Positions 4,759 to 62,377 of a stretch of 64,000 nt of DNA are shown here, in pieces. The notes beneath the pieces were generated by a model. The model saw nothing but the letters and a program-made list of their open reading frames with translations, did not search any database and was not told the origin of the DNA. The translations under genes and the position numbers were made by a program. Position 1 is the first letter of the stretch, and every line of letters begins with the position of its first letter. This stretch comes from a virus (lineage: Duplodnaviria > Heunggongvirae > Uroviricota > Caudoviricetes): positions 89,614-153,613 of the IMG/VR virus record IMGVR_UViG_3300031993_000018; one strand, 5' to 3'.

Positions 4759-4788
4759 ATTTTTGTTATATTTATAATTGAACTTATA

Positions 4789-6752: not shown

Positions 6753-6794
6753 TTGAAGAAAGAGTCAGGAAAACCTGACTCTTTTGTTATTTTT

Positions 6795-24247: not shown

Positions 24248-24973
24248 ATGAAATTTCTGATACAGACAGTAAATAAACAGATTACATATGACTTCATTTT
24301 TGAGTTGACCATATGTAAGGAATACTTTGATTGGATTGGAAGGGATTTCAAACTCAAGAAACATGAAGGTCTGAACTTTGATGATATAAAGAACCCGGAC
24401 CAGTATGTCCCTGTTGGTTCTGTTGAGTTTGTATCAGAGTATTTGAGGAAGTTTTACCCCCAGGCAGAGAAAGCACTCATACCTATCAATGTTCCAGAAC
24501 AGTTGTTCCCATTTGCCGGCAGAACCATTGCCAACATAACCAAACCGGAGGATATGAATGGGTTTGATTGTCTTGTGTACAGAAAGTCTTTGGATACAAT
24601 AAAGGATCCCAACAATGGATGGTGGGGATTTCCTGAATATGAATGGTGTAAGGGTTACCAGGTTTCCACTCCAATTGATAACATTATTTCTGAATGGAGA
24701 GTATTTGTATTCAATGATGTAATTGTGGATGCAAAAAACTACAGGGGTGACTTTTTCGTATGTCCGGATGAAGAAACAGTTTCCAATATGGTGAAAGCAT
24801 ATAAGAATTCACCCAGAGCATATACGCTTGATGTAGCAGTCACAAGTGAAGGTAAAACTGTAGTGATTGAGTGTCACCGGTTCTTTTCATGTGGTCTGTA
24901 TGGATTTTGTGAGCATGATAAATATCCTGTAATGCTTTCACAGGAATGGTTTGAAATGAAAAATATGAGATAA
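24248..24973 (+). CDS. ATP-grasp fold enzyme
   Basis: EWRVFVFNDVIVDAK and LDVAVTSEGKTVVIECH resemble ATP-grasp C-terminal strands (RimK-like E.RV.V.G.VV and D....G...V.E.N). Confidence 0.4.
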   Translation: MKFLIQTVNKQITYDFIFELTICKEYFDWIGRDFKLKKHEGLNFDDIKNPDQYVPVGSVEFVSEYLRKFYPQAEKALIPINVPEQLFPFAGRTIANITKPEDMNGFDCLVYRKSLDTIKDPNNGWWGFPEYEWCKGYQVSTPIDNIISEWRVFVFNDVIVDAKNYRGDFFVCPDEETVSNMVKAYKNSPRAYTLDVAVTSEGKTVVIECHRFFSCGLYGFCEHDKYPVMLSQEWFEMKNMR

Positions 24974-25580: not shown

Positions 25581-26258
25581 ATGAAACACTATGACAGTAT
25601 TCCCAGACTCCAGGATGATGGAACACTGAAAGGAGAGATGGTCGCCGGGTACAACAAACTTGACGGTCAGAACTTCTGTGTCACATATAATTGTAGAAAG
25701 AAAACCTGGGGACCTTATGGATCCAGGACTGTCACTGTTGATGAGAACTCTGAACAGTTTGGGGACACGGTTAGATTCTTCAACAACTCCGGTTACAAGG
25801 AGATACTTGGAAATATCATCAAGGAGTATTCAGGTAAGGGAGATGTGTTCAATGGTGTTGAAGAAGTCACATTCTTCTTTGAGTGGTATGGGTGGAACTC
25901 ATTCGCTGGCAAACACAAGGAAGGTGACAAGATGCACCTGGCACTCATTGATGTGTTCCTGAAGAAGAGAGGTTATATGGAACCCAAATCATATGAGATG
26001 TGTTTCAGAAATTGCGGAATTGAACTTCCTGATCTCATATATTCCGGACCACTCAATGCAGACATTATAGAAAAGGTTCAGAACAATGACTGGACAGACC
26101 CGGATTGTTGGAATTCCAAAGTACATGAGGGTGTTGTCTTCAAAAGAACAACACTCCTGAAAGGACAGAGGAGACCATCAGTCAAGGTGAAGACCAAATG
26201 GTGGTTGGACACTCTCCACTCACTTTATACAGAAGAGGAATGTAAGAAACTTGAGTGA
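25581..26258 (+). CDS. ATP-dependent RNA/DNA ligase-like nucleotidyltransferase (small)
   Basis: Motif I KLDGQN (KxDGxN), motif IV-like EGVVFK and downstream lysines in RPSVKVKTKWW. Confidence 0.5.
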   Translation: MKHYDSIPRLQDDGTLKGEMVAGYNKLDGQNFCVTYNCRKKTWGPYGSRTVTVDENSEQFGDTVRFFNNSGYKEILGNIIKEYSGKGDVFNGVEEVTFFFEWYGWNSFAGKHKEGDKMHLALIDVFLKKRGYMEPKSYEMCFRNCGIELPDLIYSGPLNADIIEKVQNNDWTDPDCWNSKVHEGVVFKRTTLLKGQRRPSVKVKTKWWLDTLHSLYTEEECKKLE

Positions 26259-27860: not shown

Positions 27861-28388
27861 ATGAATGATTTTAAGAAAATAGTTTTCCTGGATATAGATG
27901 GTGTATTGGCATCCATCCAATTCTTGTGTGATCATCCCAAGTCATCAGGAATTGATCCGGAAAAGTGTAAACTCCTCAACACCCTTTCTGAAATAGGTGC
28001 TGAAATTGTCATATCCTCTTCCTGGGGACACGACAATGGCAGAACTGAAAAGACATTGAGACAATGTGGGTTGACCCTTCCAATCATAGGTTACACCCAA
28101 CATTTTTCCCAGGACTGGATATGTAGGGGTAATGAAATTGAGAAGTGGTTGACAGAGATGTATGGTGGTATGGGTACCAAGTTTGGTTACGATTGCGATA
28201 CGGGTGAACCATACTACAGGGAACACTTTAGTGATAATGATGTTGATTATGAGTATGTTATCTTTGATGATGACACTGATTTCCTGCTTGGACAAAAAGA
28301 CAACTTCATCAAAATAGATGAAAAGACAGGTCTGACAGAAGAGGACATCAACAAAGCAATTAAGATACTTACAAGAAGTGGCGAATAA
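27861..28388 (+). CDS. HAD-superfamily phosphatase (HAD_SAK / polynucleotide-phosphatase-like)
   Basis: Motif I VFLDIDGVL followed by a short ISSSW block, as in the HAD domains of Swiss-army-knife RNA repair proteins and PNKP phosphatases. Confidence 0.5.
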   Translation: MNDFKKIVFLDIDGVLASIQFLCDHPKSSGIDPEKCKLLNTLSEIGAEIVISSSWGHDNGRTEKTLRQCGLTLPIIGYTQHFSQDWICRGNEIEKWLTEMYGGMGTKFGYDCDTGEPYYREHFSDNDVDYEYVIFDDDTDFLLGQKDNFIKIDEKTGLTEEDINKAIKILTRSGE

Positions 28389-34076: not shown

Positions 34077-34481
34077 ATGCTTCCGAGAAACATTGATCTC
34101 ACCGAGAATAGAGACTTTGGTGGTGATGGAGAATTGGATGGACTTGACATATCACTCTGGTGGGATGATGATGAATTGATAACTCCTGCCCAGTGGCACA
34201 ATAGTGTAAGGTTTCAGAGTTTCTTTGGGAAAAGAATCCACAAGAATGAGAAGGATAAAATCTTCACTCATATGGATCTTCCATTTCTCACAGGTGATGA
34301 AGGTAGATGTACCAAGTGTGGTCGCTTATTAGTCCCCTGGAATAGGTTTCACGGATTCTGTATGGGATGTAAAGATGAAATGGAAAAGTTCACACCAAAG
34401 GACATTCCTTGGCGGAACAATGAACTAAGAATAGTTAGAGCTGGTGACAGAGGTCAGGGAGATTTATTCAATTTAAGATGA
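34077..34481 (+). CDS. Hypothetical zinc-ribbon protein
   Basis: RCTKCGRLL...FCMGCK; its stop overlaps the next start as ATGA. Confidence 0.45.
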   Translation: MLPRNIDLTENRDFGGDGELDGLDISLWWDDDELITPAQWHNSVRFQSFFGKRIHKNEKDKIFTHMDLPFLTGDEGRCTKCGRLLVPWNRFHGFCMGCKDEMEKFTPKDIPWRNNELRIVRAGDRGQGDLFNLR

Positions 34482-34654
34482 GTATCTGGGGTGATATGCT
34501 TGACAAAGGTCAGGGAGATATGGAGAGAGGAGAAGACCTTCCACATATCAGAAGTCTTTATCCCTCAGTGTTTGGTAAGAAAAATCCCACAAGAAAGGAT
34601 TTGGAAGACTATAGAGAAATGTGTGAAAACTTAAATAAAATATTTGGACTATGA
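34478..34654 (+). CDS. MSIWGDMLD-leader family member 0 (58 aa)
   Basis: Hand translation gives MSIWGDMLDKGQGDMERGEDLPHIRSLYPSVFGKKNPTRKDLEDYREMCENLNKIFGL. Start and stop both overlap neighbours as ATGA. Confidence 0.5.
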   Translation: MSIWGDMLDKGQGDMERGEDLPHIRSLYPSVFGKKNPTRKDLEDYREMCENLNKIFGL

Positions 34655-34920
34655 GTATCTGGGGTGACATGCTTGACCGGGGAACCGGGGAGAAAATAAA
34701 GAAGGAGGATATCATCCCCTTTCCTAACTTTGATGAACTTTTTTATCCTGATATTACTATTAATCCCAAATCATTTACTGTAGATTATTTAGACCAATTA
34801 AGAGATTTCTCAAAGAAAACATCAGATATAGAAAGTAAACTATCAGATGTGGAAAAGAAACTCAAGGAACTTGGAGTTACAATAAATGATTTTACCAAAT
34901 CATGTAGATTACCATTATGA
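34651..34920 (+). CDS. MSIWGDMLD-leader family member 1
   Basis: MSIWGDMLDRGTGEKIKKEDIIPFP...; unique C-terminus. Confidence 0.6.
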   Translation: MSIWGDMLDRGTGEKIKKEDIIPFPNFDELFYPDITINPKSFTVDYLDQLRDFSKKTSDIESKLSDVEKKLKELGVTINDFTKSCRLPL

Positions 34921-35177
34921 GTGTCTGGGGTGACATGCTTGACAGAGGTAGAGGTATAAGAGAAAAGAAAGAAGATGATTACCTCTCCAAAATGAAAAGT
35001 GCGGGTGTATATAAACCTGTATTTGTACCCTGGTGGAAGAATTTTGACTCTACTGATATTGATATTGATGAAGATGCAATAAAGGAGATGAACAATTTCA
35101 GCTGGGATAAAATGTGGAAGAAACAGAATATCAATGATGAATATTCAAGAGACCTTTTATCCAAACTGTACAAATAA
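34917..35177 (+). CDS. MSIWGDMLD-leader family member 2
   Basis: MSVWGDMLDRGRGIREKKEDDYL...; unique C-terminus. Confidence 0.6.
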   Translation: MSVWGDMLDRGRGIREKKEDDYLSKMKSAGVYKPVFVPWWKNFDSTDIDIDEDAIKEMNNFSWDKMWKKQNINDEYSRDLLSKLYK

Positions 35178-35182
35178 ATCTT

Positions 35183-35500
35183 ATGGGAGTCTGGGGAAAA
35201 ATACTTGACCAAGGTTGTGGTATAAAGATTAAGAAGGAGAATGAATATTTGGAGAATCTGAAAAGGATGATTAGAGATGTCCTATCTTCCCATAAGGTTT
35301 GTCCAGATGGTGACCCACCAATCAAAAATTTCTTTATTGAGGTTGAAGAAGATGGAGGAGTACAAAGATATTCCATTACCCTTGCAGCCTTGGAACACAA
35401 AGATGAATATGGACAAATAACAAGAGATTTTAATAGTCTTGATAATTTGGAAAGCATCCTTAAACTACTTAAAAAAGGAAAAATAATATATGTATTTTAA
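35183..35500 (+). CDS. MSIWGDMLD-leader family member 3 (divergent leader MGVWGKILDQGCGIKIKKENEY)
   Basis: The leader is conserved at both protein and DNA level (atgggagtctggggaaaaatacttgac). Confidence 0.55.
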   Translation: MGVWGKILDQGCGIKIKKENEYLENLKRMIRDVLSSHKVCPDGDPPIKNFFIEVEEDGGVQRYSITLAALEHKDEYGQITRDFNSLDNLESILKLLKKGKIIYVF

Positions 35501-35502
35501 TT

Positions 35503-35916
35503 ATGAGTATCTGGGGTGATATGCTTGACCGGGGAACCGGTGAAAAGATAAAGAAGGAGGATCTCATTGCCGATCCACTGGGGACACTTGAAAAAAGTGT
35601 TATAGTGTATATAGGACCTGTGGACAGAACAGTGTTTCCCACAATGCCGGCGGAAAAAGGACAACTGTACTATGTAAAGGATGAGGTAACCATTGAAGGT
35701 GTAACCTTTCCAGCAGGTTCAGGTATAGTCTATGATGGAACCAAGTGGGTAAATGTAGGTGGTTACACTGTTGAAAGGGTAGATGCCAATATCGATTACC
35801 TTAAACCTGATTCTGGTTTGGAATATATCCCTGAGCCGCCGCGAATTACAATAGCAGCATATGACGATGACGGAGTATATGTACCAAAGTCAATAGGATG
35901 GAAAAATAATTTTTGA
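35503..35916 (+). CDS. MSIWGDMLD-leader family member 4
   Basis: MSIWGDMLDRGTGEKIKKEDLIADP...; 137 aa. Confidence 0.6.
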   Translation: MSIWGDMLDRGTGEKIKKEDLIADPLGTLEKSVIVYIGPVDRTVFPTMPAEKGQLYYVKDEVTIEGVTFPAGSGIVYDGTKWVNVGGYTVERVDANIDYLKPDSGLEYIPEPPRITIAAYDDDGVYVPKSIGWKNNF

Positions 35917-35945
35917 TTAATCAAGAAAAATCATTATATTTGTAA
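35916..35945 (+). promoter_or_regulatory. Sigma-AB type promoter (TTTG, then 19 nt, then TATATTTG)
   Basis: TTTGattaatcaagaaaaatcatTATATTTGtaag, upstream of the nucleotidyltransferase gene. Confidence 0.5.
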
Positions 35946-35968: not shown

Positions 35969-37288
35969 ATGAAACTAACATTAGAGAATATTACAATCAA
36001 AGACCACAAGATTTATGACCCGGAAGGAAACTTCAGGGGAGAAATCTTGTATGAGTACATTCGTGGTTCTCATCTGTATTCAACCAATGTGGAGACATCA
36101 GATGAAGACCAGGGAGGTATCTACATTATGCCTAACAGCACCATATTGGGTCTTGGTCTTGACTATCAGAATGAGATAAAGGATAAGAGTAATGACAAGT
36201 GCATCTGGGAGTTGGGAAGATTCCTGGAACTTGCCCTGTCTTCAAACCCAACTGTCCTGGAGGCACTCTTTGTTCCTGGTGATAAGGTCATCTATGAACA
36301 TCCTGTCATCAAGGAGATCCGTTCACACCGTGATGAGTTTATCACCAAGAAGTGTTTTGCACCATTTGGAGGTTATGCTTCAAGTCAGATAAAGAAGGCT
36401 CAGGGTCAGAACAAGAAGATCCACTGGGATATTGCCCAGATGGTAAGGAAGACTCCTATGGACTTCTGTTATACCTTGAAGAACCAGGGTAGTCAGCCTA
36501 TGCAGGACTGGTTGGATGAAAGAGGACTTGATCAGAGAAACTGTGGTCTGGTCAATATTCCCAATATGCCTGATATGTTCGGTGTGTATTATGACTGGGG
36601 TCAGCACATCAGACTTGCCGGTATCACCAAGGAGTATTTCACCAATAAGGAGAATTACTACAAGGATAAGTTTATCAAGACTATGGACATGTATCTTGGA
36701 AATGAATATATCCTCCATGAGGATGGAAACCTTGAGGATGAACTTGAATATATCTGGGATCATCACTCTGAACCTCATGGTGGTTACTGTGGAATCATCT
36801 CACCCAATGAGGATTCCAACACAGTAAGGTTCTCTTCTGTTGTCAAGGGTGAGAAACCCATCTGTTATATGTCTTACAATGCCAATGCATATATATCACA
36901 TTGTAAGGAGTATAGGGAGTATGAGGACTGGAAGGAACACAGAAATCCAGCAAGGTATGAATCCAATATGGAGGGAGAGAAGTCAGGCAATGCAGATATG
37001 AAATATGACTGCAAGAATATGATGCACTGCTTCAGGTTGATGGCAATGGCAAAGGAGATTGCAGAAGGAAAGGGTGTGATCCTGGATCGCGCTGGTATTG
37101 ACAGGGAGTTTCTCCTGGATGTTAGAAACCGTAAGTATGGTTATTCTGAACTCCAGAAGAAGATGCTTGACCTGAAGGATGAGATGGATGCTGCCATTGA
37201 GAAATCTACCATCAAGGATGAGATTGATCCCCAAATGGTCAATGACCTCCTCCTGGAAGCAAGAAAACATTTTAATTCAAAAGATTAA
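35969..37288 (+). CDS. Pol-beta superfamily nucleotidyltransferase (GSHLYST...SDED motif)
   Basis: Near the N-terminus, IRGSHLYSTNVETSDEDQGG fits the GS...(S/T)D.D nucleotidyltransferase active site. The ~440 aa protein probably carries a helical substrate-binding extension. Confidence 0.5.
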   Translation: MKLTLENITIKDHKIYDPEGNFRGEILYEYIRGSHLYSTNVETSDEDQGGIYIMPNSTILGLGLDYQNEIKDKSNDKCIWELGRFLELALSSNPTVLEALFVPGDKVIYEHPVIKEIRSHRDEFITKKCFAPFGGYASSQIKKAQGQNKKIHWDIAQMVRKTPMDFCYTLKNQGSQPMQDWLDERGLDQRNCGLVNIPNMPDMFGVYYDWGQHIRLAGITKEYFTNKENYYKDKFIKTMDMYLGNEYILHEDGNLEDELEYIWDHHSEPHGGYCGIISPNEDSNTVRFSSVVKGEKPICYMSYNANAYISHCKEYREYEDWKEHRNPARYESNMEGEKSGNADMKYDCKNMMHCFRLMAMAKEIAEGKGVILDRAGIDREFLLDVRNRKYGYSELQKKMLDLKDEMDAAIEKSTIKDEIDPQMVNDLLLEARKHFNSKD

Positions 37289-37305
37289 CTTTAAAAAATA
37301 ACACT

Positions 37306-37581
37306 ATGTTTGGAATTATTTTATCATTAGTAGCTGCACTTCTATGTGCAATTTCATGTGGTATTTACATTCTTGAAAAGAAACCGGTGGGTGCCACATT
37401 TTTTGGATTCTTGTCAATTTTAAATCTTGTTTTCTTTTTTCTTAATCTTGTGAACTATAATTCAAATGAAATTGAGAAACATGAGATTGAAAATGTTATA
37501 AAGTATGATGTTGACAGTACCATGACAATATCCGGAAAGGACACTACAAAGACATACACAATTTATTACTACAAATATTAA
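37306..37581 (+). CDS. Small membrane protein
   Basis: Two hydrophobic helices at the N-terminus. Confidence 0.4.
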   Translation: MFGIILSLVAALLCAISCGIYILEKKPVGATFFGFLSILNLVFFFLNLVNYNSNEIEKHEIENVIKYDVDSTMTISGKDTTKTYTIYYYKY

Positions 37582-37585
37582 AATT

Positions 37586-38035
37586 ATGAAACCGGAGAAT
37601 AGGAATACATTGAAGAAAAGTGTGGAAGCTCTCACTACCCTTGGGTTCAAACCTGAAAACATTATGGTAACCGGAAGTATAGCTCTGGATATTGTTGGAG
37701 TACTTCCCCCGAACAGATGGACTCATGACATTGATTTCATCATCAAAATGGATGACAAGTCTTGGCATTGCATGAAACTGCTTGAAGCAATTGAAAAGGC
37801 AGATATGGGTAAGGATAGCAAGTATCCTGATGACAAGAATATGGTCTTCCTGAAGTTAAAGGGTATCAGTACTAACATATGGAGACACACTCCCAACTTT
37901 GACTGGTCAACCATCAAGGATACAGAGACTGGTGTTATGGTGGCAACAGTGTCTCATATTATTCAGGCAAAGAAGGCATATGGTCGCCAAAAGGACTATG
38001 AGGATCTTGCCGCCATTTGCAAATACATTCTTTGA
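37586..38035 (+). CDS. Hypothetical protein, possible minimal nucleotidyltransferase fold
   Basis: VTGSIALDIVGV....THDIDFII resembles the GS...D.D motif of MNT-type nucleotidyltransferases. Weak. Confidence 0.3.
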   Translation: MKPENRNTLKKSVEALTTLGFKPENIMVTGSIALDIVGVLPPNRWTHDIDFIIKMDDKSWHCMKLLEAIEKADMGKDSKYPDDKNMVFLKLKGISTNIWRHTPNFDWSTIKDTETGVMVATVSHIIQAKKAYGRQKDYEDLAAICKYIL

Positions 38036-38266
38036 TAATGATATTCAAGTTCAATGGAGGTAGAGGTGCCATCCTTTGTGACAAATGTGGAATCATCCTC
38101 AAGTCAGGAGATGACATTCCAAAATATGTCTGGGATGCAGTCAGGAAAGGTACTGTAAGTGACCTCCCTGGTATGTGTTGTGATGACAACTGTGAAAGAA
38201 GTAAGAAAATTCTTGGAGACATCTACACAGGTAACACCAAAGATGTAGGACAATAAAATTAAGATT

Positions 38267-39112
38267 ATGTATTTCAAAAACCTAAAAGAAAAGTGCGAAT
38301 ATTACCGTTCGCTTACTGATTATAAACTGATGTCAAACTCTTATGTCCTGGTGATGGTGGATGGTCACTGTTTCAGCAAGATGATCAAGAATAAGTTTGA
38401 CAAACCATTTGATGATGAGTTCATCAATATGATGAATGAGACTGCAAAGTATCTGTGTGAACAGGTACAGGGAGTTAAGTTTGCATACACACAGTCTGAT
38501 GAGATTTCACTTCTCATCACAGACTTTGACACACCAGTAACCGATGCATACTTTAGTTTCAGACTCTGTAAGATGCAGTCACTCATTGCTGCACTGGCAA
38601 CTGCCAAGTTCAACCAGTTATATGCCATCCATAACATTGGTAAGGAAGTGAGTGGTGGCAGCAACAAGATTGAACTTAAGAAGACTATTCCACTCTGTAC
38701 ATTTGACTGTAAGGTATGGACTGTTCCAAATGCAAATGACGCCTATGCCTGGTTCCTCTACAGACAGACTGACTGTATCAAGAACTCAAAGGCACAGACA
38801 GCCCAGACATATCTTCCACACAAACAGTTGGTGGGTCTGACAGCAGATGATATGATTGCCAAACTCAAGGATGAGCAGAACATTGACTGGTATGAGTTTG
38901 TCAATGGTAAGAAGTATGGAAGACTCATCAGGAAAGTGGAGACTCCTATGGAGAAAGACCTTTCCAATGGACTACACATTGAATACATAAGGAATGTATG
39001 GACACCTGTTGAGATAACAGACTTGAGAGAGGATGGGTCACAAGTGAGAGATCTGATTCCTGAACTGTTCAGACCTGGTGTTAATATAAAAGAAGAAATC
39101 ACAGAAGAATGA
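38267..39112 (+). CDS. Thg1-like protein (tRNA-His guanylyltransferase family 3'-5' nucleotidyltransferase)
   Basis: YVLVMVDGHCFSKMIKNKFDKPFDDEFINMMNETAKYL and FAYTQSDEISLLI parallel the Thg1/TLP N-terminal catalytic blocks (R.DGR.FH.F...KP.D....M...A...AYG.SDE.S..L). Confidence 0.65.
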   Translation: MYFKNLKEKCEYYRSLTDYKLMSNSYVLVMVDGHCFSKMIKNKFDKPFDDEFINMMNETAKYLCEQVQGVKFAYTQSDEISLLITDFDTPVTDAYFSFRLCKMQSLIAALATAKFNQLYAIHNIGKEVSGGSNKIELKKTIPLCTFDCKVWTVPNANDAYAWFLYRQTDCIKNSKAQTAQTYLPHKQLVGLTADDMIAKLKDEQNIDWYEFVNGKKYGRLIRKVETPMEKDLSNGLHIEYIRNVWTPVEITDLREDGSQVRDLIPELFRPGVNIKEEITEE

Positions 39113-39489
39113 TTATAGGTATAGATTTTGATGGGACATGTGTAAAGCATGCATATCCCAATATAGGAGATGACATTGGTGCTGTTCCAGTACTCAAGGA
39201 ATTCATAAGACAGGGACACAAACTGGTTCTCATCTCAATGAGGTCCGGGGAACTCCTGGACAATGCCGTACAGTGGTTTAAGGAGAGAGGAATTGAACTC
39301 TATGGAGTAAACCACAATCCTGATCAGGACAGTTGGACTAAGTCACCAAAGATTTATGCACAACTGTATATAGATGATGCCGGACTTGGTTGCCCCACTA
39401 ATTTTGACCAGAGAACCGGAAGACCTTATGTGGATTGGAAAGTAATTGCACAGGCATTCGGTTACAAATATGATGAACTTCCAAAATAA
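39109..39489 (+). CDS. Small HAD-superfamily hydrolase
   Basis: Motif I IGIDFDGTCV (DxDGT); 126 aa. Confidence 0.5.
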   Translation: MIIGIDFDGTCVKHAYPNIGDDIGAVPVLKEFIRQGHKLVLISMRSGELLDNAVQWFKERGIELYGVNHNPDQDSWTKSPKIYAQLYIDDAGLGCPTNFDQRTGRPYVDWKVIAQAFGYKYDELPK

Positions 39490-39499
39490 TATTTGATTT

Positions 39500-40219
39500 A
39501 TGGATACTACCAATACCAATTATTATTATATGATGAGAGATGAGATAGACAGTATTGACAATCCTGAAATCAGGAGGTTTGCCAACACACTGTTGAACAG
39601 AGTCCCCGATTATTTTTTCAAGGTACCCGCATCTTCATCAGGTAAGTATCACCCAAAGAATGACCTGGGTGAGGGTGGATTGGTCAGACACTCCATCAGT
39701 GTAAAGAGAATGCTTGTACATCTCCTTGAACTGGACTGTTATAGTTTCTCTGATGATGAGAAGGATCTCCTGATTGTTGCGGCTCTGTTCCATGACTGTA
39801 TGAAGTCAGGAACACAGGAGGAGTATAAGAAAAACAACAGAACCAAATTCCTCCATCCTGTCCTGGCTGCCAACTTCATTATCACCACATCTGTGATAGA
39901 TGGGTTCAAATATGATTGGGCATTGTATATTGCTGATGCTGTGATTTCACATATGGGTCAGTGGAACACCAACAAGAGTGAGGATGGTGAACTCCCTGTC
40001 CCTGTTAATCCGGCACAAAGAATCCTCCATCTTGCAGACTATCTTGTCTCAAGAAAGGACATCAATATGGTCCTCAGGGAAGATGATGAGATTATTGACA
40101 ATGAAGTAATTGTAACCCAGGATGACAACAAGGATGAACCTGGAGATGTTCCTGAACACAAGGAGAATGGTGAGGACACCAAGACAGCACCAGGAACAAC
40201 TATGGAAATGTCAGACTGA
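39500..40219 (+). CDS. HD-domain phosphohydrolase
   Basis: H...HS...AALFHDCMK contains His-Asp metal ligands, with additional downstream His (ISHMGQW). A bidirectional terminator follows. Confidence 0.6.
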   Translation: MDTTNTNYYYMMRDEIDSIDNPEIRRFANTLLNRVPDYFFKVPASSSGKYHPKNDLGEGGLVRHSISVKRMLVHLLELDCYSFSDDEKDLLIVAALFHDCMKSGTQEEYKKNNRTKFLHPVLAANFIITTSVIDGFKYDWALYIADAVISHMGQWNTNKSEDGELPVPVNPAQRILHLADYLVSRKDINMVLREDDEIIDNEVIVTQDDNKDEPGDVPEHKENGEDTKTAPGTTMEMSD

Positions 40220-40280
40220 TTGCTGCGATAGCGGTTGCGACAATAAAAAAGAGGGTGAATGATTTCATCCTCTTTTGTTT

Positions 40281-40577
40281 TTAAATACCATCACATCCTT
40301 CTTCACCAGAATCAACTTCTGCATAGTCCTCACCTTTGGGGATTGGGTCTTTAAACCTCTTCTCAAACACACCTATACCCAGGAGGGCAAATGCACCAAT
40401 CATCATGGTCATTATTGCCTCACCAAGCCAAACTGCCTGAACATTCCTGAACACACTGATTACAATGACAGTGAGTAAGACAATAAGAATGAATGTACCC
40501 AACACTCTCTTGGATGACACTCTTCCATTCGCACCGGTGAACATTGTGTCAAAGAATCTGACCTTTTTGTTTTTCAT
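40281..40577 (-). CDS. Minus-strand small membrane protein (2 TM, acidic C-terminus)
   Basis: Internal start MKNKKVRFFD of minus ORF 40281..40739; TM helices LGTFILIVLLTVIVISVF and IMTMMIGAFALLGIGVF. It is flanked by a bidirectional terminator and divergent promoters. Confidence 0.45.
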   Translation of the reverse strand: MKNKKVRFFDTMFTGANGRVSSKRVLGTFILIVLLTVIVISVFRNVQAVWLGEAIMTMMIGAFALLGIGVFEKRFKDPIPKGEDYAEVDSGEEGCDGI

Positions 40578-40668
40578 GTTGTATGTGTTTATTATAAAAT
40601 ATTTATGTGAATATTTGGATATTTCAAAAAAACATATTATATTTGTAGTAAGAATAAAAATATAAACT

Positions 40669-41127
40669 ATGTATTGGAAATTTATATACAGGTGGTGGTA
40701 CACCGCACAGGCATCAGTAATGTATGTTTGTGCAGACAATGCAAAGGATGCTGAGAAGGAATTTGACTCCCACTTCGGTTATGAGGATGTGGATATAGTC
40801 AGTTACAGTGAAATATCCAAGGAGGATATGCTGAAGGAAATGGTGAAGGGTTACAAGGGTGATGATACCGACAAGAAACTCTATCAAGTCTTTGAGGTGG
40901 ACACCACCATTGAAGAATATAATATGGAATATTGTCTTATTGGTGCCAATAATTTGGAAGATCTCATCCAGCATCTTCCAGACATTCTGAAAGAATATAA
41001 AAATATATCCAAAAAAGAAATAAGGGGACTGATGAAGAACTATGAGATATACCCACCTAAACCAGTTGTGGGTACATACACAAACAAACCATATTCTGTC
41101 TTAACTATGTTTGGTTATATGGAATAA
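40669..41127 (+). CDS. Hypothetical protein
   Basis: 152 aa ORF. Confidence 0.45.
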   Translation: MYWKFIYRWWYTAQASVMYVCADNAKDAEKEFDSHFGYEDVDIVSYSEISKEDMLKEMVKGYKGDDTDKKLYQVFEVDTTIEEYNMEYCLIGANNLEDLIQHLPDILKEYKNISKKEIRGLMKNYEIYPPKPVVGTYTNKPYSVLTMFGYME

Positions 41128-41336
41128 CGGACGATTACGAACGACAAAATAAAAGGCATTATGTTTTATATTTATAAAAAGAACTTGAACACAGGCAAGT
41201 CCTCATTCTTTATGAAGACTGCTGATAACAAACTGGCTGAGTCCAGGATTAGGGAACTGAATGCCGAGTCATTGTATGATGATGAGTACTACTACATTTC
41301 AGAGACACCTATCAATGGTTAAAAAATCTAAAAATA

Positions 41337-41368
41337 TTTGGTAGTATCGATTTTTTGTTTTATATTTG
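41337..41368 (+). promoter_or_regulatory. Sigma-AB type promoter, extended conserved form (AAAATATTTGGTRGT...TATMTTTGTATCAGAAAC)
   Basis: aaaaatatTTGgtagtatcgattttttgtttTATATTTGtatcagaaacc. The same extended motif occurs at 50791..50840, 54341..54390 and 60851..60900. Confidence 0.55.
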
Positions 41369-41937
41369 TATCAGAAACCAAAAACAATAAACAATTATGA
41401 ACGACGATCAACTCTTCATAGAGGTATTCAGGAACTTCCAGGAACATTATTATGGTCTGGATATGAGAGGTACACTTGTTTATTACAAGGGTGAGTGTAA
41501 ATTCAACATAGAGGGTTACAACCTCTGTTATAATCTCCTCCGACTCACAAGGATGCTTGAAGAGGCTGGAGAACTCAGGTAACAACTTAAAACATCAAAA
41601 TTATGAAACTTATCAATGTAAATGACAGAGATGGGGATACTTACATAATCAATCCCATCCATGTGGAGGAAGTCAAAGTCACACGTTCAAGTCACAATAA
41701 TGACTGGTGTATTGTGATTTCCGTTGGGGAGAACAGGACACACACAATCTTGTGTCATTCAGAATCAGAGAAGGACAAACATGTTCTTGAAATCAATGCA
41801 GCAATGGAGTCAATTTCTTAATCCTGACAACTATGAACTGGACAAATTTTTGGTTGTTCCTCATTGTACTTGTACTTTATGGAATAGGGGATGAAATCCA
41901 TAAGTTGAACAACAAAAACAAAGACTAATTTGAGATT

Positions 41938-42543
41938 ATGAAGAATATCCGTATAATTTTCAATGTCATAGCGACACTTTTGTGTATGGCTCTTGCCTTT
42001 TTGTTGATATATCCCTTCCTTGGGAATCCAAAAGAAAAGGAACTGAGAAAAATGGTGAATGTATACTATGAGACTCATGATTTCACCAACTTTGAAGAGT
42101 ATCAGTCCATCCGCCTGTGTGATGAGGTTGAGCAACAGATTAAGGTTATGAACACCAAACTGAACTGGGATAAGAGTTTCTGTGAGGCATACCGGGAAAA
42201 TCTTGATGGTGAGGTGGAGAGTACACTTTCAGAGGATGAGGTTGTATTCAGTTATAACTACTATAAACATGAGATAGAGAAGGATGAAAAGATGCTTGAA
42301 TATCTCAAGTATGTAAATCTGCTTTACCCGGAGAAATATAATGAGGTATCATACACTACATACAGAATAACATACCTTGGGAAAGATAAGGATGGAAATG
42401 TAATCCATGACAGATGTTATGGGAAATTTGACAATGACGGTGTGATGGTCGCATACAGAATGTCTGACACCGCCGAGTGGAAGGTTACTTATAAAGGTGA
42501 AACCACATCCATCCCAAAGTACCGTGAAATGCTTTTACAATGA
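41938..42543 (+). CDS. Hypothetical protein with N-terminal signal anchor
   Basis: MKNIRIIFNVIATLLCMALAFLLIYPF, then a soluble domain. Confidence 0.45.
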   Translation: MKNIRIIFNVIATLLCMALAFLLIYPFLGNPKEKELRKMVNVYYETHDFTNFEEYQSIRLCDEVEQQIKVMNTKLNWDKSFCEAYRENLDGEVESTLSEDEVVFSYNYYKHEIEKDEKMLEYLKYVNLLYPEKYNEVSYTTYRITYLGKDKDGNVIHDRCYGKFDNDGVMVAYRMSDTAEWKVTYKGETTSIPKYREMLLQ

Positions 42544-45994: not shown

Positions 45995-46477
45995 ATGAAG
46001 GTATTTTTCCCGGGGACTTTTGATCCCTTTACAATTGGTCATGAAGACCTTGTTAAGCGTGCATTGGCAATGGGTTTTGAGGTGGTAATCGGTATTGGCA
46101 TCAATGAGAAGAAGGAACCTCTCTTCACCATAACAGAAAGACTTGATGCCATCCGTAAACATTTTGCTGGTTACACCCGTGTTGGTGTTGTTCAGTATGA
46201 GGGACTCACTGTTGATGCTGCCAGGGCAAATGGTTGCCAGGCAATCCTGAGGGGTGTCCGCTCAGTGGTAGACTTTGAGTATGAGAGAGGTCTGGCAGAC
46301 ATCAATGACAAGATTGACGGTATAGAGACCATCCTACTGGTATCCAAACTTGATCTCCAGTATGTGAGTAGCAGTTTTGTCAGAGAACTCATCCACTTTG
46401 GTCGCAACCCCAAGGATATGGTGATTGACACATTCCAACCGGATGTGGAACTCAAGGCATACTACAATAAGTCATAA
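45995..46477 (+). CDS. coaD: Phosphopantetheine adenylyltransferase (CoaD/PPAT), copy 1
   Basis: FPGTFDPFTIGHEDLV (compare E. coli YPGTFDPITNGHIDIV), ILRGVRSVVDFEYE (LIRGLRAVADFEYE), YVSSSFVRELI (FISSSLVKEV). Confidence 0.8.
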   Translation: MKVFFPGTFDPFTIGHEDLVKRALAMGFEVVIGIGINEKKEPLFTITERLDAIRKHFAGYTRVGVVQYEGLTVDAARANGCQAILRGVRSVVDFEYERGLADINDKIDGIETILLVSKLDLQYVSSSFVRELIHFGRNPKDMVIDTFQPDVELKAYYNKS

Positions 46478-48748: not shown

Positions 48749-50719
48749 TTGGCACAGTATATCAAGATAGGAGGTAGATGGAAACAAATCAGGTCTGTCT
48801 ATAAGAAGGTAAACGGTACCTGGATCCCCCAAGAGTATTATAATTTTGATGACAATATCCACTTCTTTAATGCAGCAGAGGTGGATGTTGATGTTTTCAC
48901 TATTGTATCAGAAGACTCTTATACCGGTAAACAGTTCTATCTTGTTGCAAAGTTCAATGGTACAAGAGTGTATCCTACCTGGTCAATCACATCAGGAAAT
49001 GAATATGCCACAGTCAACAGTAATGGTAAGGTGACCATACTTGCCGGAGCCCACAATAACACTATCACAGTTCATGCTTCACTCAATGGTCTGGGAAAGT
49101 CCAAGACCATCACAGTGTCTTACAGCAACCAGTTGTCAATTGAGGGTGCTGACACAATGTCAGGAACATCGGGTAACCTGATTGCCCTTTACAACTCAAC
49201 CATAGTTGTTCCTACCTGGTCAATCACATCAGGAAGTCAGTATGCCGAGATATATCCGACAGGTCAAATCTCCATTATGGATTCAGGACAGATTACAGTA
49301 TCTGCCACATATGATGGGTATACTGCAACCAAGGTCATCACTCTTGTCTATGATGAGAACAGTTCAGCATATACAGATGTTGATCCCGACACCGGTGCAG
49401 TCACAACAACCGAGACTACAACAACAGTTGACCCGGAGACAGGTGCAACAATAGAGACAACAACATCTACAACAACCAACACTGACGGTTCTACATCAGA
49501 GACATCAACAGAGACAACAACAAACACTGATGGTTCTACAACAACCACAGAGACAACTACCAATTCAGATGGTAGCAGCAGTTCATCAACCACATCAGTG
49601 TCTTCAGCAGATTCAGATGGTGCAGTCACAACAGAGACCAGCACCACAACCAATAATGCAGATGGTACATCAACAGAGACCAACTCTACAACAGTTGAGA
49701 ATGAAGACGGATCTTCAACATCAACATCATCCACTGTAAACTATGATGAGAATGGAAATGAGACATCATCATCCTCATCAACAGTGAATGTTTCATCAGC
49801 AGATTCTGACGGTGCGGTTACGACAGAGACCAGCACAACAACAAACAATGCTGACGGTACATCATCAGAAAGTACATCCACACTGGTGGAGAATGAGGAT
49901 GGTTCATCATCATCACAGTCACAAACAGTCAACTATGATGAGAATGGTGACACCACAGGATCTACAACCAATGAGACCAATGTCAATTCTGACGGTTCAT
50001 CACAGAGTTCTACAACAAACTATGATGCATCAGGTGACCCGACAGACACAACCAATGTGGGAACAGACACCACAGGTAATGTGGACACCCAGAACATCGA
50101 GTATGATGAGGAGGGTAACCAGACAGTAACAGGTTATGACATCAACACAGAGGCAAGTGAAGGTGAAGGTAAGGAGATTAGTGGTGATGGAGTCAATACA
50201 GAGTTTGTTCCTTTTGATGACCAGGGTTCAGGATTCATCTGCCACATCAGATTCAAGACTGTTCAGTCAGAACAGCCGAGACCTCCTCTTGTTGAGGACA
50301 TAGATGACAGTGGTACAAACTATCTTTATAATGTAATGTCTGCCAAGTCACCTACAAAGATTGGTAACTACTATCCTGGCTTTGACATAAGATGGGCAAT
50401 CTCCAAGACCAATGCTTCCAGTGGAGTAATCCAGTTCAGGTATGCCCCCGCCAATTCAGGAAACACCCAGACTAACCTCACACCATATGGAGATAATGAG
50501 TATGACATCACAGTGACTTATGATCCCCATAAGTTATACAACAATTACAAGCTCAGGGTCACATCAGCACTGGGAAGTATCCAGACCATTCAGGCAGACA
50601 AGGAGTTTTCCACACTGAATATGGACTTCACAATAGGTTGCGCCCTTTCATCACAAGGTACACCATACAGACATGCCAATGTGACAATATATGAGTTCAC
50701 GATAACCAAGTTACATTAA
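48749..50719 (+). CDS. Tail fibre / receptor-binding adhesin with Big_2 Ig-like domains, Thr/Ser-rich tandem repeats and a C-terminal beta-rich domain
   Basis: Two Big_2-like blocks (ATVNSNGKVTILAGAHNNTITVHASLNGLGKSKTITVSY and AEIYPTGQISIMDSGQITVSATYDGYTATKVITLVY). A ~62-aa unit SSADSDGAVTTETSTTTNNADGTS...VENEDGSS...TVNYDENG is repeated twice, alongside shorter TTNTDGST repeats. Confidence 0.6.
   Translation: MAQYIKIGGRWKQIRSVYKKVNGTWIPQEYYNFDDNIHFFNAAEVDVDVFTIVSEDSYTGKQFYLVAKFNGTRVYPTWSITSGNEYATVNSNGKVTILAGAHNNTITVHASLNGLGKSKTITVSYSNQLSIEGADTMSGTSGNLIALYNSTIVVPTWSITSGSQYAEIYPTGQISIMDSGQITVSATYDGYTATKVITLVYDENSSAYTDVDPDTGAVTTTETTTTVDPETGATIETTTSTTTNTDGSTSETSTETTTNTDGSTTTTETTTNSDGSSSSSTTSVSSADSDGAVTTETSTTTNNADGTSTETNSTTVENEDGSSTSTSSTVNYDENGNETSSSSSTVNVSSADSDGAVTTETSTTTNNADGTSSESTSTLVENEDGSSSSQSQTVNYDENGDTTGSTTNETNVNSDGSSQSSTTNYDASGDPTDTTNVGTDTTGNVDTQNIEYDEEGNQTVTGYDINTEASEGEGKEISGDGVNTEFVPFDDQGSGFICHIRFKTVQSEQPRPPLVEDIDDSGTNYLYNVMSAKSPTKIGNYYPGFDIRWAISKTNASSGVIQFRYAPANSGNTQTNLTPYGDNEYDITVTYDPHKLYNNYKLRVTSALGSIQTIQADKEFSTLNMDFTIGCALSSQGTPYRHANVTIYEFTITKLH
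49598..49965 (+). repeat. Two tandem copies of a ~186-nt unit inside the fibre gene
   Basis: The DNA starting at 49598 (gtgtcttcagcagattcagatggtgcagtcacaacagagaccagcacc...) recurs from 49784 (gtgaatgtttcatcagcagattctgacggtgcggttacgacagagaccagcaca...) with about 85 % identity. Confidence 0.6.
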
Positions 50720-61693: not shown

Positions 61694-62377
61694 ATGAAGA
61701 ATATAGAAGACATAAACACCAAATATCCAAGGACATATCATCTGCCTTGGTCACCCGGAGCCACTTCTGATGACAAGAAGTTGTCCTCAGACTGGTTTGA
61801 TGCAGATGAATGGAAAGGAAAGGAGATTGTGATCACTGAGAAGCTTGACGGTGAGAACACCGCCTTCTGGAATGGTGATGTCTTCAGCAGAAGTCACTCG
61901 GTTCCCACCAGGTCACCCTGGTCAAGAAACCTTTGGGACAAAGATGGACTCCTGTGGGTGATAAAAGACAAGATCTCCCCGGAAGAGATTGTCTATGGTG
62001 AGAACCTTTATGGTGAACACAGCATACACTATGACAGACTTCCGGCGTATTTCTTCGCCTTCGCCTGCCGCAGGGAAAATCAGTGGTGGAGTTGGGATGA
62101 TGTTGTTCTGATGGCGGATATTCTGAATGTACCGACAGTTCCTGTCCTGTGGAGAGGAAGGTTGGAGTCAGAGTCTGAACTGAAGGAGATGATCTCCAGG
62201 TTTATGTCCCAACCATCGGCATTCGGTGATACAAAGGAAGGAGTGGTGATAAGAAAGGTCGAAGGATTTGACAACAAGGACTTCTCCAAGAATGTCGCCA
62301 AGTATGTGAGGGAAAATCATGTCCAGACTGACCAACACTGGACAAAGAACTGGAAAAGAGCAAAGTTAATAGTTTGA
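61694..62377 (+). CDS. ATP-dependent RNA ligase-like nucleotidyltransferase
   Basis: N-terminal KYPRTYHL, motif I KLDGEN, motif IV EGVVIRK, plus downstream Lys residues. Confidence 0.55.
   Translation: MKNIEDINTKYPRTYHLPWSPGATSDDKKLSSDWFDADEWKGKEIVITEKLDGENTAFWNGDVFSRSHSVPTRSPWSRNLWDKDGLLWVIKDKISPEEIVYGENLYGEHSIHYDRLPAYFFAFACRRENQWWSWDDVVLMADILNVPTVPVLWRGRLESESELKEMISRFMSQPSAFGDTKEGVVIRKVEGFDNKDFSKNVAKYVRENHVQTDQHWTKNWKRAKLIV

Follow-up and report, generated by a model that had tools for sequence, protein, structure and literature searches.

The RNA-repair kits of jumbo phages are the described systems closest to the locus reported here. In its parts dealing with RNA repair, the survey by Iyer, Anantharaman, Krishnan, Burroughs and Aravind (Iyer et al. 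2021, Viruses 13:63, PMC7824862), which builds on Burroughs and Aravind (2016) and whose dataset includes the Prevotella megaphage Lak-B8, lists RlaP, Thg1, RNA ligases, HAD-SAK and PTH2 as such kits, and its section 3.4.9 explicitly proposes that jumbo-phage Thg1 restores 5′ ends. Phage Thg1 genes had been noted since 2010 and 2013 (PMC2904730, PMC3601020), and 151 phage records in GenBank contain annotated Thg1-like genes. Enzymes of the RlaP family, which includes T4 NrdC.11, the RlaP of T4, add 1–2 NMPs to RNA 3′-OH ends and prefer cleaved tRNA (PMC12776372), and MenT1 and other MenT enzymes target the 3′ acceptor end of tRNA (PMC10435456, PMC7450476). The activities of RlaP, of Thg1-like proteins (TLPs) on 5′-truncated tRNA, and of YhaM as an exonuclease are taken here from the literature. 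We analyzed a cluster of genes related to these enzymes in a large Bacteroidota-infecting phage of the gut or rumen, within a stretch of 64,000 nucleotides (64 kb) referred to below as the window.

Results

Layout and boundaries of the cluster

The region from 35969 to 40219 contains seven tightly packed genes, all on the + strand, with intergenic gaps of 2–17 nt and one 4-nt overlap. Its 3′ boundary is a strong hairpin terminator (40247..40276) with a 13-bp stem and T-runs on both strands, at which a convergent minus-strand gene terminates as well. Every ORF named in the preliminary description of this DNA was present on the + strand at the coordinates given there, in concordance with the JGI gene calls for the source contig, and the five enzymes that it placed within 4.3 kb all kept their assignments in profile and structure comparisons, with intact motifs. 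Two more cluster genes, absent from that description, encode a 91-aa membrane protein and a 72-aa Cys4 protein.

A promoter-like motif of the Bacteroidota −7 type (TAnnTTTG), TTATATTTGTA, is located on the + strand at 35934..35944, 25 nt 5′ of the RlaP start codon, and may act as a promoter. Motifs of this type occur 18 times in the window versus 2.5 expected, a number reached in 0 of 100 shuffles, and the majority of the copies lie in intergenic spacers 5′ of + strand genes. The motif upstream of RlaP was not conserved in L001, L003 and L014. The suggested co-regulation of the cluster with the upstream array of paralogues is uncertain: here the array and RlaP are separated by the motif, and relatives have no spacer.

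The nucleotidyltransferases and their neighbors

The first gene (35969..37288, + strand) encodes a 439-aa Pol-beta nucleotidyltransferase. A profile search assigned it to the RNA-linked RlaP family (PF10127, aa 25–146) with an E-value of 5e-19 (69 bits, where the cut-off is 23), and its full length matched phrog_388, "nucleotidyltransferase" (7.6e-46). The active-site motif G33-S34...D45-E46-D47 (GS...DED) is legible in the sequence, and the identity to homologues was 81% in L001, 67% in L003, 68% in L009, and 44% in L005. The next gene (37306..37581, + strand), also called by JGI, encodes the predicted 91-aa membrane protein, which gave sub-threshold membrane-protein matches only; in L014 a weakly conserved counterpart, 43% identical over 63 aa, occupies the corresponding place.

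The third gene (37586..38035, + strand) encodes a minimal Pol-beta-fold nucleotidyltransferase of 149 aa, which belongs to the DUF6036 / AbiEii(MenT)-like group. It has in common with MenT/AbiEii (DUF1814) and DUF6036/TM1012 proteins the Pol-beta core with GS...DxD and the C-terminal K...R.KD..D helix. MenT1 is among its closest structural relatives; the resemblance is confined to the fold (18% identity), and comparable scores were obtained for TM1012, LnuA and ANT(2''). The protein is much smaller than these enzymes; the solved chain of MenT1, with 195 residues, exceeds it by about 45. Directly 3′ of it lies the gene of the zinc-ribbon-like Cys4 protein (CxxC...CxxxC; 38038..38256, + strand, with the ATG at 38038 as the conserved start), whose four cysteines are conserved across five loci. 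This pairing is invariable, as the Cys4 gene directly follows the nucleotidyltransferase homologue also in L001, L003, L014 and L015, while the partner of MenT/AbiEii enzymes is the MenA or AbiEi antitoxin.

Such a pair could have an offensive or exclusion use, in which the nucleotidyltransferase would modify the tRNA 3′ ends of the host or of competitors and stop translation, with the zinc ribbon as regulator or antitoxin, and the remaining cluster genes would protect or restore the translation capacity of the phage itself. The invariable pairing resembles a two-gene toxin–antitoxin layout, and some members of the nucleotidyltransferase family matched the AbiEii toxin model. However, the window protein matched none of the toxin family models in Pfam and PADLOC, its likeness to MenT1 is shared with TM1012, LnuA and ANT(2'') and comes with the smaller size, and the pair always adjoins RlaP, a repair-like context rather than one resembling a defense island or a toxin–antitoxin locus. 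We consider the offensive use highly improbable.

The Thg1-like protein

The fifth gene (38267..39112, + strand) encodes a 281-aa protein of the bacterial TLP type. The Thg1-like assignment, for which a profile match to another family had been named as the refuting outcome, was upheld by matches to Thg1 PF04446 (E 2.9e-26) and phrog_4717 (2.4e-54), and by significant full-length sequence similarity to the TLP structure of B. thuringiensis (BtTLP; PDB 4kgk, E 1.1e-32 over aa 9–221), against 1e-6 for human Thg1; the Pfam search gave no match to Thg1C. Residues D32, S77-D78-E79 and R166-Q167-D169-N173 were invariant in 24 homologues, and the catalytic Asp, the Asp-Glu pair and the RQxDxxKNS region of bacterial and archaeal TLPs (PMC3701042, PMC4820378) are conserved. 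Unlike those TLPs the protein is phage-encoded, and it differs from BtTLP by an insertion of ~25 residues (roughly aa 120–145) and by a 60-residue unaligned C-terminal extension. Judged by its sequence, it is predicted to be a templated 3′–5′ RNA polymerase, which would activate the 5′ end with ATP or GTP and then add nucleotides in the 3′–5′ direction by Watson–Crick templating.

The HAD phosphatase and the HD-domain protein

The sixth gene (39109..39489, + strand) shares its first 4 nt with the end of the TLP gene. Its 126-aa product is a capless HAD phosphatase of the BT0820 type with a DFDGT motif, homologous to PDB 2obb (BT0820; E 1.1e-20) and matching phrog_1238 (3.6e-28) and NCBIfam NF046079 (BT0820-family HAD; 5.8e-27, under the cut-off). 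In crAss001 the HAD homologue gp60 overlaps gp61, annotated as "polynucleotide kinase," and by analogy these translationally coupled genes would be a split counterpart of T4 Pnkp. HADs of the BT0820 type are widespread in phages (198 phage records), where they occur in varied contexts and are annotated as metabolic "morons."

The last gene (39500..40219, + strand) encodes a 239-aa protein described earlier as an HD phosphohydrolase. The HD domain is clear (PF01966, E 1e-9), but the label is probably too generic, as the predicted fold is nearest to the YhaM 3′–5′ exonuclease. Compared with the YhaM / Cbf1 3′–5′ exonuclease of Firmicutes (PDB 9h3f; PMC6243249, PMC12107432), the phage protein is without the N-terminal OB-fold domain and carries an acidic disordered C-terminal tail, and the sequence similarity is marginal (NCBIfam E 0.0027). 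The HD enzyme may work on DNA, because YhaM degrades DNA as well (PMC12107432) and HD homologues lie among genes for DNA replication and repair (in SPO1 those for DNA polymerase, an exonuclease and DNA ligase; in c-st that for a replicative helicase).

Gene neighborhoods in other phages

Megablast against GenBank gave no match for this phage lineage, whose proteins are at best 41–57% identical to those of Lak. The order RlaP, nucleotidyltransferase, zinc ribbon, Thg1, HAD, HD is repeated on IMG/VR contigs of 344,746 and 411,604 bp, with 54–81% protein identity, and the overlap of the Thg1 stop with the HAD start is conserved in L001 and L003. The close relative L014 keeps RlaP, the membrane protein, the nucleotidyltransferase and the zinc ribbon, while Thg1, HAD and HD are missing, and the two halves of the cluster are therefore separable. 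Elsewhere, the neighbors of Thg1 are a CCA-adding enzyme, RlaP, an RNA ligase and RNase_T (L005); RlaP, HAD_SAK_2, Metallophos and, two genes from Thg1, a BT0820-type HAD (L009); two RNA ligases and Tpt1/KptA (L010 and L011); or Metallophos and a PHA02142-like gene (L007). In Yersinia phage fHe-Yen9-04 RlaP lies 3 kb from the Thg1-like gene; in Lak megaphages the distance is ~190 kb, with no partner genes within ±8 kb of Thg1. The recurrence of the same order in related contigs, together with the adjacency of Thg1 and RNA-repair genes in several other lineages, argues that the clustering is not due to chance and supports a role in the repair of RNA, probably tRNA, ends. The RNA-repair reading of the preliminary description is hence strengthened by neighborhoods in independent phage lineages and by the biochemistry of RlaP (PMC12776372).

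Alternatively, the cluster could be a loose set of genes for nucleotide and nucleic-acid metabolism with no common pathway, co-located in an early or auxiliary gene region, in which nucleotides or DNA ends would be the substrates of the HD and HAD proteins, leaving RlaP and the TLP as the only enzymes that handle RNA. The surroundings of the HD homologues in SPO1 and c-st, the scatter of BT0820-type HADs among phages, the lack of the Thg1–HAD–HD cassette in L014, and the abundance of nucleotide-metabolism genes around the cluster (GMP reductase, thymidine kinase, NUDIX, PnuC, dNMP-kinase-like) are consistent with such a set. On the other hand, the conserved Thg1/HAD overlap, the HAD found again two genes from Thg1 in L009, and the single terminator that bounds the unit make it distinctly unlikely.

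RNA-repair and tRNA genes elsewhere in the window

Two RNA-ligase-like genes and a HAD_SAK phosphatase, previously noted outside the cluster, were confirmed. The ligases (both PF09414) are a 225-aa protein (25581..26258, + strand; E 1e-9, phrog_548 6.9e-15) and a 227-aa protein (61694..62377, + strand; E 1.7e-30); the cluster is 10 kb away from the former and 22 kb from the latter. Homologues of the former, with 57–74% identity, lie 1–4 kb upstream of Thg1 in L002, L005, L010 and L011, and it is likely a functional partner of the cluster; those of the latter lie 5–7 kb upstream of Thg1 in L002, L010 and L011. The 175-aa HAD_SAK_2 phosphatase (27861..28388, + strand; PF18143, E 2.4e-17), an RNA-repair HAD of the "Swiss Army Knife" kind, has homologues ≤2 kb from RlaP in L009 and L014. 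The gene called PTH2-like (9523–9963) is present, but its identity is weak (sub-threshold Pfam match, E 0.016). No polynucleotide kinase was found within the window, and thus the genes seen here could not make 5′-OH ends ready for ligation or TLP activation. Hence, to call this healing-and-sealing toolkit complete was an overstatement.

The tRNA genes bear on a further explanation, that the cluster serves housekeeping tRNA maturation or quality control and not counter-defense. The TLP would then add G−1 to phage tRNA-His or mend 5′-truncated phage tRNAs, and the nucleotidyltransferases and exonuclease would shape the 3′ ends of phage tRNAs without encoded CCA. The addition of G−1 to tRNA-His is the best-known activity of the Thg1 family, large phages of this kind carry many tRNAs (33 in Lak-B2, including tRNA-His(GTG)), and the tRNA-Ser(GCT) in the window is without encoded CCA. 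The authors of the Bc431v3 genome also suggested that tRNAs of the phage or the host are modified (PMC3601020). However, tRNA-His is absent from the window, none of the 12 loci examined has a tRNA gene within about 6–8 kb of the Thg1-like gene, and the acceptor-stem register of Lak-B2 tRNA-His is ambiguous with respect to an encoded G−1. Moreover, the protein belongs with the TLPs and not with the Thg1 enzymes dedicated to tRNA-His, and its recurrent partners (RNA ligases, Tpt1, HAD_SAK and RlaP) are repair rather than maturation enzymes. We regard the housekeeping role as rather unlikely.

Discussion

The data suggest, with a probability of roughly 0.6, that the seven-gene cluster is a compact module for RNA-end remodeling, probably transcribed as one unit, whose likeliest job is to restore end-damaged tRNAs or other structured RNAs. 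The damage could be inflicted by nucleases of the host or of competitors, such as those of bacterial defenses. The YhaM-like HD enzyme might first trim or clean damaged 3′ termini, after which the capless HAD would remove 3′-phosphates, and RlaP would re-add one or a few nucleotides at the 3′-OH, which the minimal nucleotidyltransferase and its zinc-ribbon partner probably also extend. The Thg1-like protein would then rebuild missing 5′ nucleotides in the 3′–5′ direction with the opposite strand as the template, and nicks could be sealed by the two RNA ligases from outside the cluster. The substrates assumed here, the sequence of the steps and the use against defenses are proposals for this phage. 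The preliminary description took a Thg1 module to point to a defense that damages tRNA 5′ ends or acceptor stems. No defense that damages tRNA 5′ ends was found in the literature searched, including that on acceptor-stem tRNA cleavage by defense systems, and the known acceptor-stem attackers, retron Eco2, HEPN-MNT and MenT/AbiEii, target the 3′ strand or 3′ end.

In T4, Pnkp and Rnl1, set against PrrC anticodon nucleases, are likewise a phage-encoded counter to tRNA damage. Common to T4 and this phage are a HAD-type 3′-phosphatase, RNA ligase(s) and a nucleotidyltransferase of the RlaP family. In contrast to T4, the window yielded no polynucleotide kinase, the ligases are unlinked, and the HAD is a BT0820-family protein and not a Pnkp phosphatase domain; on the other hand, the cluster has a 5′-extending polymerase and a probable exonuclease, both of which T4 is without. 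The sets described in the RNA-repair parts of Iyer et al. (2021) have the same families and proposed logic, with ATP-grasp RNA ligases, the HAD "Swiss-army-knife" phosphatase, and RlaP restoring 3′ nucleotides. Compared with those descriptions, RlaP and Thg1 are here within a single tight seven-gene unit, and the extra partners are the DUF6036/MenT-like nucleotidyltransferase with its Cys4 protein, the BT0820-type HAD, and the YhaM-like HD protein. Because kits that include the rare reverse polymerase have already been described in big phages, the cluster is a well-resolved new example and not, as had been suggested, a new anti-defense mechanism.

Gene organization of the cluster and its relatives

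The region between positions 35969 and 40219, for which the preliminary description had listed five enzymes, contains seven ORFs, all on the + strand. They encode a nucleotidyltransferase of the RlaP family (35969-37288, 439 aa), a small membrane protein (37306-37581, 91 aa), a mini-nucleotidyltransferase (37586-38035, 149 aa), a Cys4 zinc-ribbon protein (38038-38256, 72 aa), a Thg1-like protein, or TLP (38267-39112, 281 aa), a HAD protein (39109-39489, 126 aa), and an HD protein (39500-40219, 239 aa). The zinc-ribbon gene starts at the conserved ATG at 38038 and not at the mechanically listed TTG at 38017. The genes are spaced by 2-17 nt, and those encoding the TLP and the HAD protein overlap by 4 nt. 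Gene predictions made by JGI for the source contig (3300028887, Ga0265299_10000100, 121 kb) are concordant with these ORFs. The cluster is closed by a hairpin with a 13-bp stem and T-runs on both strands (40247-40276), which also ends a convergent minus-strand gene.

The 52-nt spacer upstream of the RlaP gene contains a promoter-like motif, TTATATTTGTA (35934-35944), which resembles a Bacteroidota-type -7 element. When at most one mismatch was allowed, 18 sites were found in the window versus 2.5 expected, an approximately sevenfold enrichment, and they were mostly located in spacers ahead of + strand genes (for example at 4766, 15387, 22397, 28427, 35934, 40637, 41360, 43561, 55139, and 60880). 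The agreement of the motif with the Bacteroidota -7 promoter consensus TAnnTTTG suggests that the host of the phage is a Prevotella-like member of the Bacteroidota. Because the motif is present in the spacer before RlaP, the cluster is probably transcribed from a promoter of its own in this phage; the motif is absent before RlaP in three relatives (L001, L003, and L014), where coding sequence abuts the RlaP gene. It is also possible that transcription reads through into the cluster from an upstream paralogue array. This array belongs to a family of six small ORFs (34478-35916 and 58458-58892) with near-identical N-terminal ~20 residues (MSIWGDMLD+G.GEK..KED) and unrelated C-termini. Five of the six are arranged in tandem directly upstream of RlaP, the sixth has a WYL_2 domain, and counterparts are found in the same three relatives.

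No match to the cluster was obtained when GenBank phages were searched by megablast, and the window has no near-identical DNA among them. The best protein matches were those of Prevotella Lak megaphages, with 56-57% identity for the TLP and 41% for RlaP. The gene order, with the exception of the membrane protein, whose position is weakly conserved, is kept on two IMG/VR contigs (344,746 bp and 411,604 bp) at 54-81% identity. The close relative L014 (a 90.8-kb contig) keeps the first four genes, lacks those for the TLP, HAD, and HD proteins, and continues with the genes that in the window follow the cluster. The locus L015 contains RlaP, Dam, Macro, mini-nucleotidyltransferase, and zinc-ribbon genes, and further on an HD gene, but no Thg1. 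The gene content of these two loci indicates that the cluster consists of a core (RlaP, membrane protein, mini-nucleotidyltransferase, and zinc-ribbon protein) and a variable cassette (Thg1, HAD, and HD). The comparison of L014 6001-8100 with window 37586-42500 shows a clean cassette indel, in which the adjacent 40.2-41.6 kb segment is missing from L014 together with Thg1-HAD-HD.

The window is a fragment of a large phage with many auxiliary genes, which include those for GMP reductase, a NUDIX protein, thymidine kinase, PnuC, Dam methylase, a sigma-70 factor, FKBP, an SPFH-domain protein, and two PPAT-like cytidylyltransferases. The last two are paralogues of the PPAT/NadD-like HIGH nucleotidyltransferase type (45995-46477 and 59885-60343), both matching phrog_29208. 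These two genes, PnuC (19905-20459), and NUDIX (6753-7388) may all serve NAD or CoA salvage. Two ORFs of ~200 aa, at 56536-57159 and 57783-58364 (MGKKIITIIIDDD... and MAKKIITIQIEIDV...), which have motifs in common along their length and one ORF (57164-57772) between them, are likely paralogues without a Pfam family. A 656-aa protein (48749-50719) with a long, internally repetitive middle region rich in Thr, Ser, Asp, and Glu, and with no Pfam match, is a candidate fibre or surface protein.

The Thg1-like protein

The Thg1-like assignment of 38267-39112 was confirmed by a Pfam profile search, in which the protein matched PF04446 with 92.4 bits (E 2.9e-26), above the curated cut-off of 29.2, and its catalytic residues are intact. 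It also matched phrog_4717 (2.4e-54) and the structure of Bacillus thuringiensis TLP (4kgk; E 1.1e-32 over aa 9-221), while the match to human Thg1 was about 1e-6 and covered the N-terminal part only. The palm-domain catalytic carboxylates of human Thg1 are D29, D76, and E77. In the phage protein D32 and S77-D78-E79 align with the RIDG and SDE motifs of the Bacillus and human enzymes. Neither these residues nor the RQxDxxKNS segment vary among 24 homologues, the most divergent of which have 54% identity. The HINNLYN motif, by which eukaryotic Thg1 recognizes the anticodon, is lacking; the aligned segment is RQTDCIKNSKAQT versus RQADCHINNLYNT in human Thg1. Judged by its sequence, the protein is of the bacterial TLP subtype and not a eukaryotic tRNA-His-specific Thg1, and it is predicted to add nucleotides in the 3′-5′ direction to 5′-truncated RNA.

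Metagenome data contained 4,699 Thg1-like homologues, the closest of which are located on phage-like contigs. In another phage lineage (P0091, P0092, P0097, and L007 8001-9425) the Thg1-like domain is followed in the same polypeptide by a C-terminal domain of ~200 aa, which resembles a paralogous family of Fibrobacter succinogenes, and a DnaJ gene adjoins. In L009 an ORF with a match to Pfam 'Tad6' (PF25188; 6372-7004) lies directly upstream of the Thg1-like gene and overlaps it.

The nucleotidyltransferases and the zinc-ribbon protein

The first gene product, previously described as a Pol-beta-type nucleotidyltransferase, was assigned by profile searches to the RlaP family, whose name derives from its genomic association with RNA ligase genes. 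It matched PF10127 with 69.4 bits (cut-off 23, E 5e-19), at profile positions 19-142 of 249 only, and phrog_388 over the full length (7.6e-46). The Pol-beta motif hG[GS]...D.[DE] is present as G33-S34...D45-E46-D47. RlaP extends RNA 3′-OH ends by one or two NMPs, with a preference for mimics of cleaved tRNA, and is required for restoring the aminoacylation of over-damaged tRNA; T4 NrdC.11 is a member of this family (PMC12776372).

The mini-nucleotidyltransferase had no family match of its own in profile searches. In an alignment of 35 family members, G30-S31 and D48-x-D50 are invariant and are accompanied by a C-terminal K..R.KD..D helix. The DUF6036 nucleotidyltransferase profile (PF19502) matched 14 of the 35, the window protein not among them (best E 1.2e-5), and AbiEii matched four. 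The combination of a profile match to DUF1814 (PF08843), four conserved motifs, and a cognate antitoxin, which would identify a MenT/AbiEii toxin nucleotidyltransferase, was not found for the mini-nucleotidyltransferase. The zinc-ribbon protein, with four conserved cysteines (CxxC...CxxxC), directly follows the mini-nucleotidyltransferase in every locus that contains the latter.

The HAD and HD proteins

The HAD protein is a capless HAD with the nucleophile motif DFDGT (D6-F-D8-G-T). It is homologous to the structure of Bacteroides thetaiotaomicron BT0820 (2obb; E 1e-20 over aa 1-95), and it scored 94.7 bits against the BT0820-family profile NF046079, below the equivalog cut-off of 165. Its pairwise similarity to the HAD_SAK_2 protein encoded at 27861-28388 was not significant, so the two were not considered paralogues. 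BT0820-type HADs are common among phages, and in crAss001 the homologue gp60 overlaps gp61, which is annotated as 'polynucleotide kinase'. The gp60/gp61 pair makes up a split analogue of T4 Pnkp, which independently supports a role of this HAD in RNA repair. A polynucleotide kinase was not found in the 64-kb window by Pfam scans or by tblastn with crAss001 gp61. Hence, the healing-and-sealing toolkit, which the preliminary description had read as apparently complete, falls short of a T4-type Pnkp/Rnl system, and the PTH2-like protein counted in it (9523-9963) has a sub-threshold match only.

The HD protein matched PF01966 with 39.1 bits (cut-off 22, E 1e-9), and its invariant metal-binding residues are H64, H98-D99, H119, H151, and D180. 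In a comparison of predicted folds YhaM ranked first, followed by Ppx/GppA (score 10.8), cyclic-nucleotide phosphodiesterases (about 10), and dNTPases (about 7). The match to NCBIfam YhaM, which points in the same direction, was marginal and below equivalog level, and the protein lacks the OB domain which in the YhaM exoribonuclease is N-terminal to HD. In SPO1 (gp32.6) and phage c-st, its homologues are located among DNA replication and repair genes, and YhaM is also a DNase (PMC12107432). A role against CBASS or Thoeris, with the HD protein as a cyclic-nucleotide phosphodiesterase and the mini-nucleotidyltransferase as a CD-NTase, was set aside, because CD-NTases scored well below TM1012/MenT1 and phosphodiesterases well below YhaM. 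A PADLOC scan of all seven cluster proteins gave no match and thus no support for a defence-system or signalling-nucleotide reading.

Linkage of Thg1-like genes to RNA-repair genes

The strongest evidence for a role in RNA repair is that in other lineages Thg1-like genes are repeatedly linked to bona fide RNA-repair families. The neighbors of the Thg1-like gene are a CCA-adding enzyme, RlaP, an RNA ligase, and RNase_T in L005, where one small gene separates RlaP from the ligase; RlaP, HAD_SAK_2, Metallophos, and a BT0820-type HAD in L009; and Metallophos and a PHA02142-like gene in L007. In L010, L011, and L002 each of the two window RNA ligases has a homologue among these neighbors (57-74% identity), and in L010 and L011 Tpt1/KptA also adjoins Thg1. 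In Yersinia phage fHe-Yen9-04 RlaP lies 3 kb from the annotated Thg1. The distances are longer in Lak phages, with about 190 kb between Thg1 and RlaP, and in the window, where the RNA ligases (25581-26258 and 61694-62377) are 10 and 22 kb away from the cluster, the nearer being ~10 kb from RlaP.

We consider it probable (about 0.6) that the cluster and the ligases repair RNA ends in four steps, a mechanism pieced together from the predicted activities. The HD exonuclease and the HAD, acting as a 3′-phosphatase, would clean damaged ends; RlaP, and possibly the mini-nucleotidyltransferase, would restore 3′ nucleotides; the TLP would restore missing 5′ nucleotides using the 3′ strand as template; and the unlinked ligases would seal the nicks. 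The main rival explanation, housekeeping maturation of the phage's own tRNAs, appears unlikely, as none of the 12 loci examined has a tRNA gene near its Thg1-like gene, and the only tRNA of the window is tRNA-Ser(GCT). The latter (1149-1237) has no encoded CCA and overlaps a mechanically listed, probably spurious ORF (1027-1332). A scan of the genome of the Lak-B2 phage without its last 839 bp found a tRNA-His(GTG) at 24815-24888. Its acceptor stem is irregular and can be drawn in two registers, with a single bulged T or with two mismatches plus a G·U wobble. In one register G-1 is not encoded (T at -1), and in the other G-1 is the first G and pairs with C73, so that this tRNA from a distant relative is ambiguous on the encoding of G-1.

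A further explanation, which we regard as quite improbable, is that the cluster is a dedicated tRNA "acceptor-end reconstruction" pathway. Damage on the 3′ strand would be resected and cleaned by the YhaM-like exonuclease and the HAD phosphatase. RlaP would then re-extend this strand jointly with the MenT-like mini-nucleotidyltransferase, for which the zinc-ribbon protein would act as a guide, and the Thg1-like enzyme would re-synthesize the 5′ strand. In this way nicks in the acceptor stem, clipped CCA ends, or toxic 3′ extensions left by defences such as retron Eco2, HEPN-MNT, or MenT/AbiEii would be undone. If true, a bacterial-type TLP would for the first time have a physiological role, and RNA could be repaired with no need for a ligase.

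Comparison with known systems

The preliminary description had also proposed that Thg1-based anti-defence would be new. It is not, since the RNA-repair inventories of jumbo phages set out by Iyer et al. (2021, PMC7824862) already read Thg1 as restoring 5′ nucleotides and contain this proposal, papers of 2010 and 2013 (PMC2904730, PMC3601020) mention Thg1 genes in phages, and Thg1-like genes and RlaP occur in 151 and 499 GenBank phage records, respectively. In the literature searched, the attacks on the tRNA acceptor stem or 3′ end, made by retron Eco2 and HEPN-MNT (PMC12916289) and by MenT toxins (PMC7450476, PMC10435456), strike the 3′ strand or the 3′ terminus, and none of them the 5′ end. 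The cluster reveals no new principle. It represents a compact, conserved, and apparently abundant TLP context, and it adds a particularly compact, conserved arrangement with a two-part modular structure. The partners that it appears to add to those in the inventories of Iyer et al. (2021) are the BT0820-type HAD, the YhaM-like HD protein, and the mini-nucleotidyltransferase with the Cys4 protein. The TLP shows translational coupling to a phosphatase and has at its sides an RNA 3′-end nucleotidyltransferase of a biochemically characterized class and a probable exonuclease; the cluster therefore offers a concrete enzyme set for in vitro reconstitution of two-ended tRNA repair, as well as a lead on tRNA-targeting defences of Prevotella/Bacteroidota hosts. 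When compared with the T4-type Pnkp/Rnl system, from which it differs by the absence of the 5′-kinase, the window contains both phosphatases and ligases.
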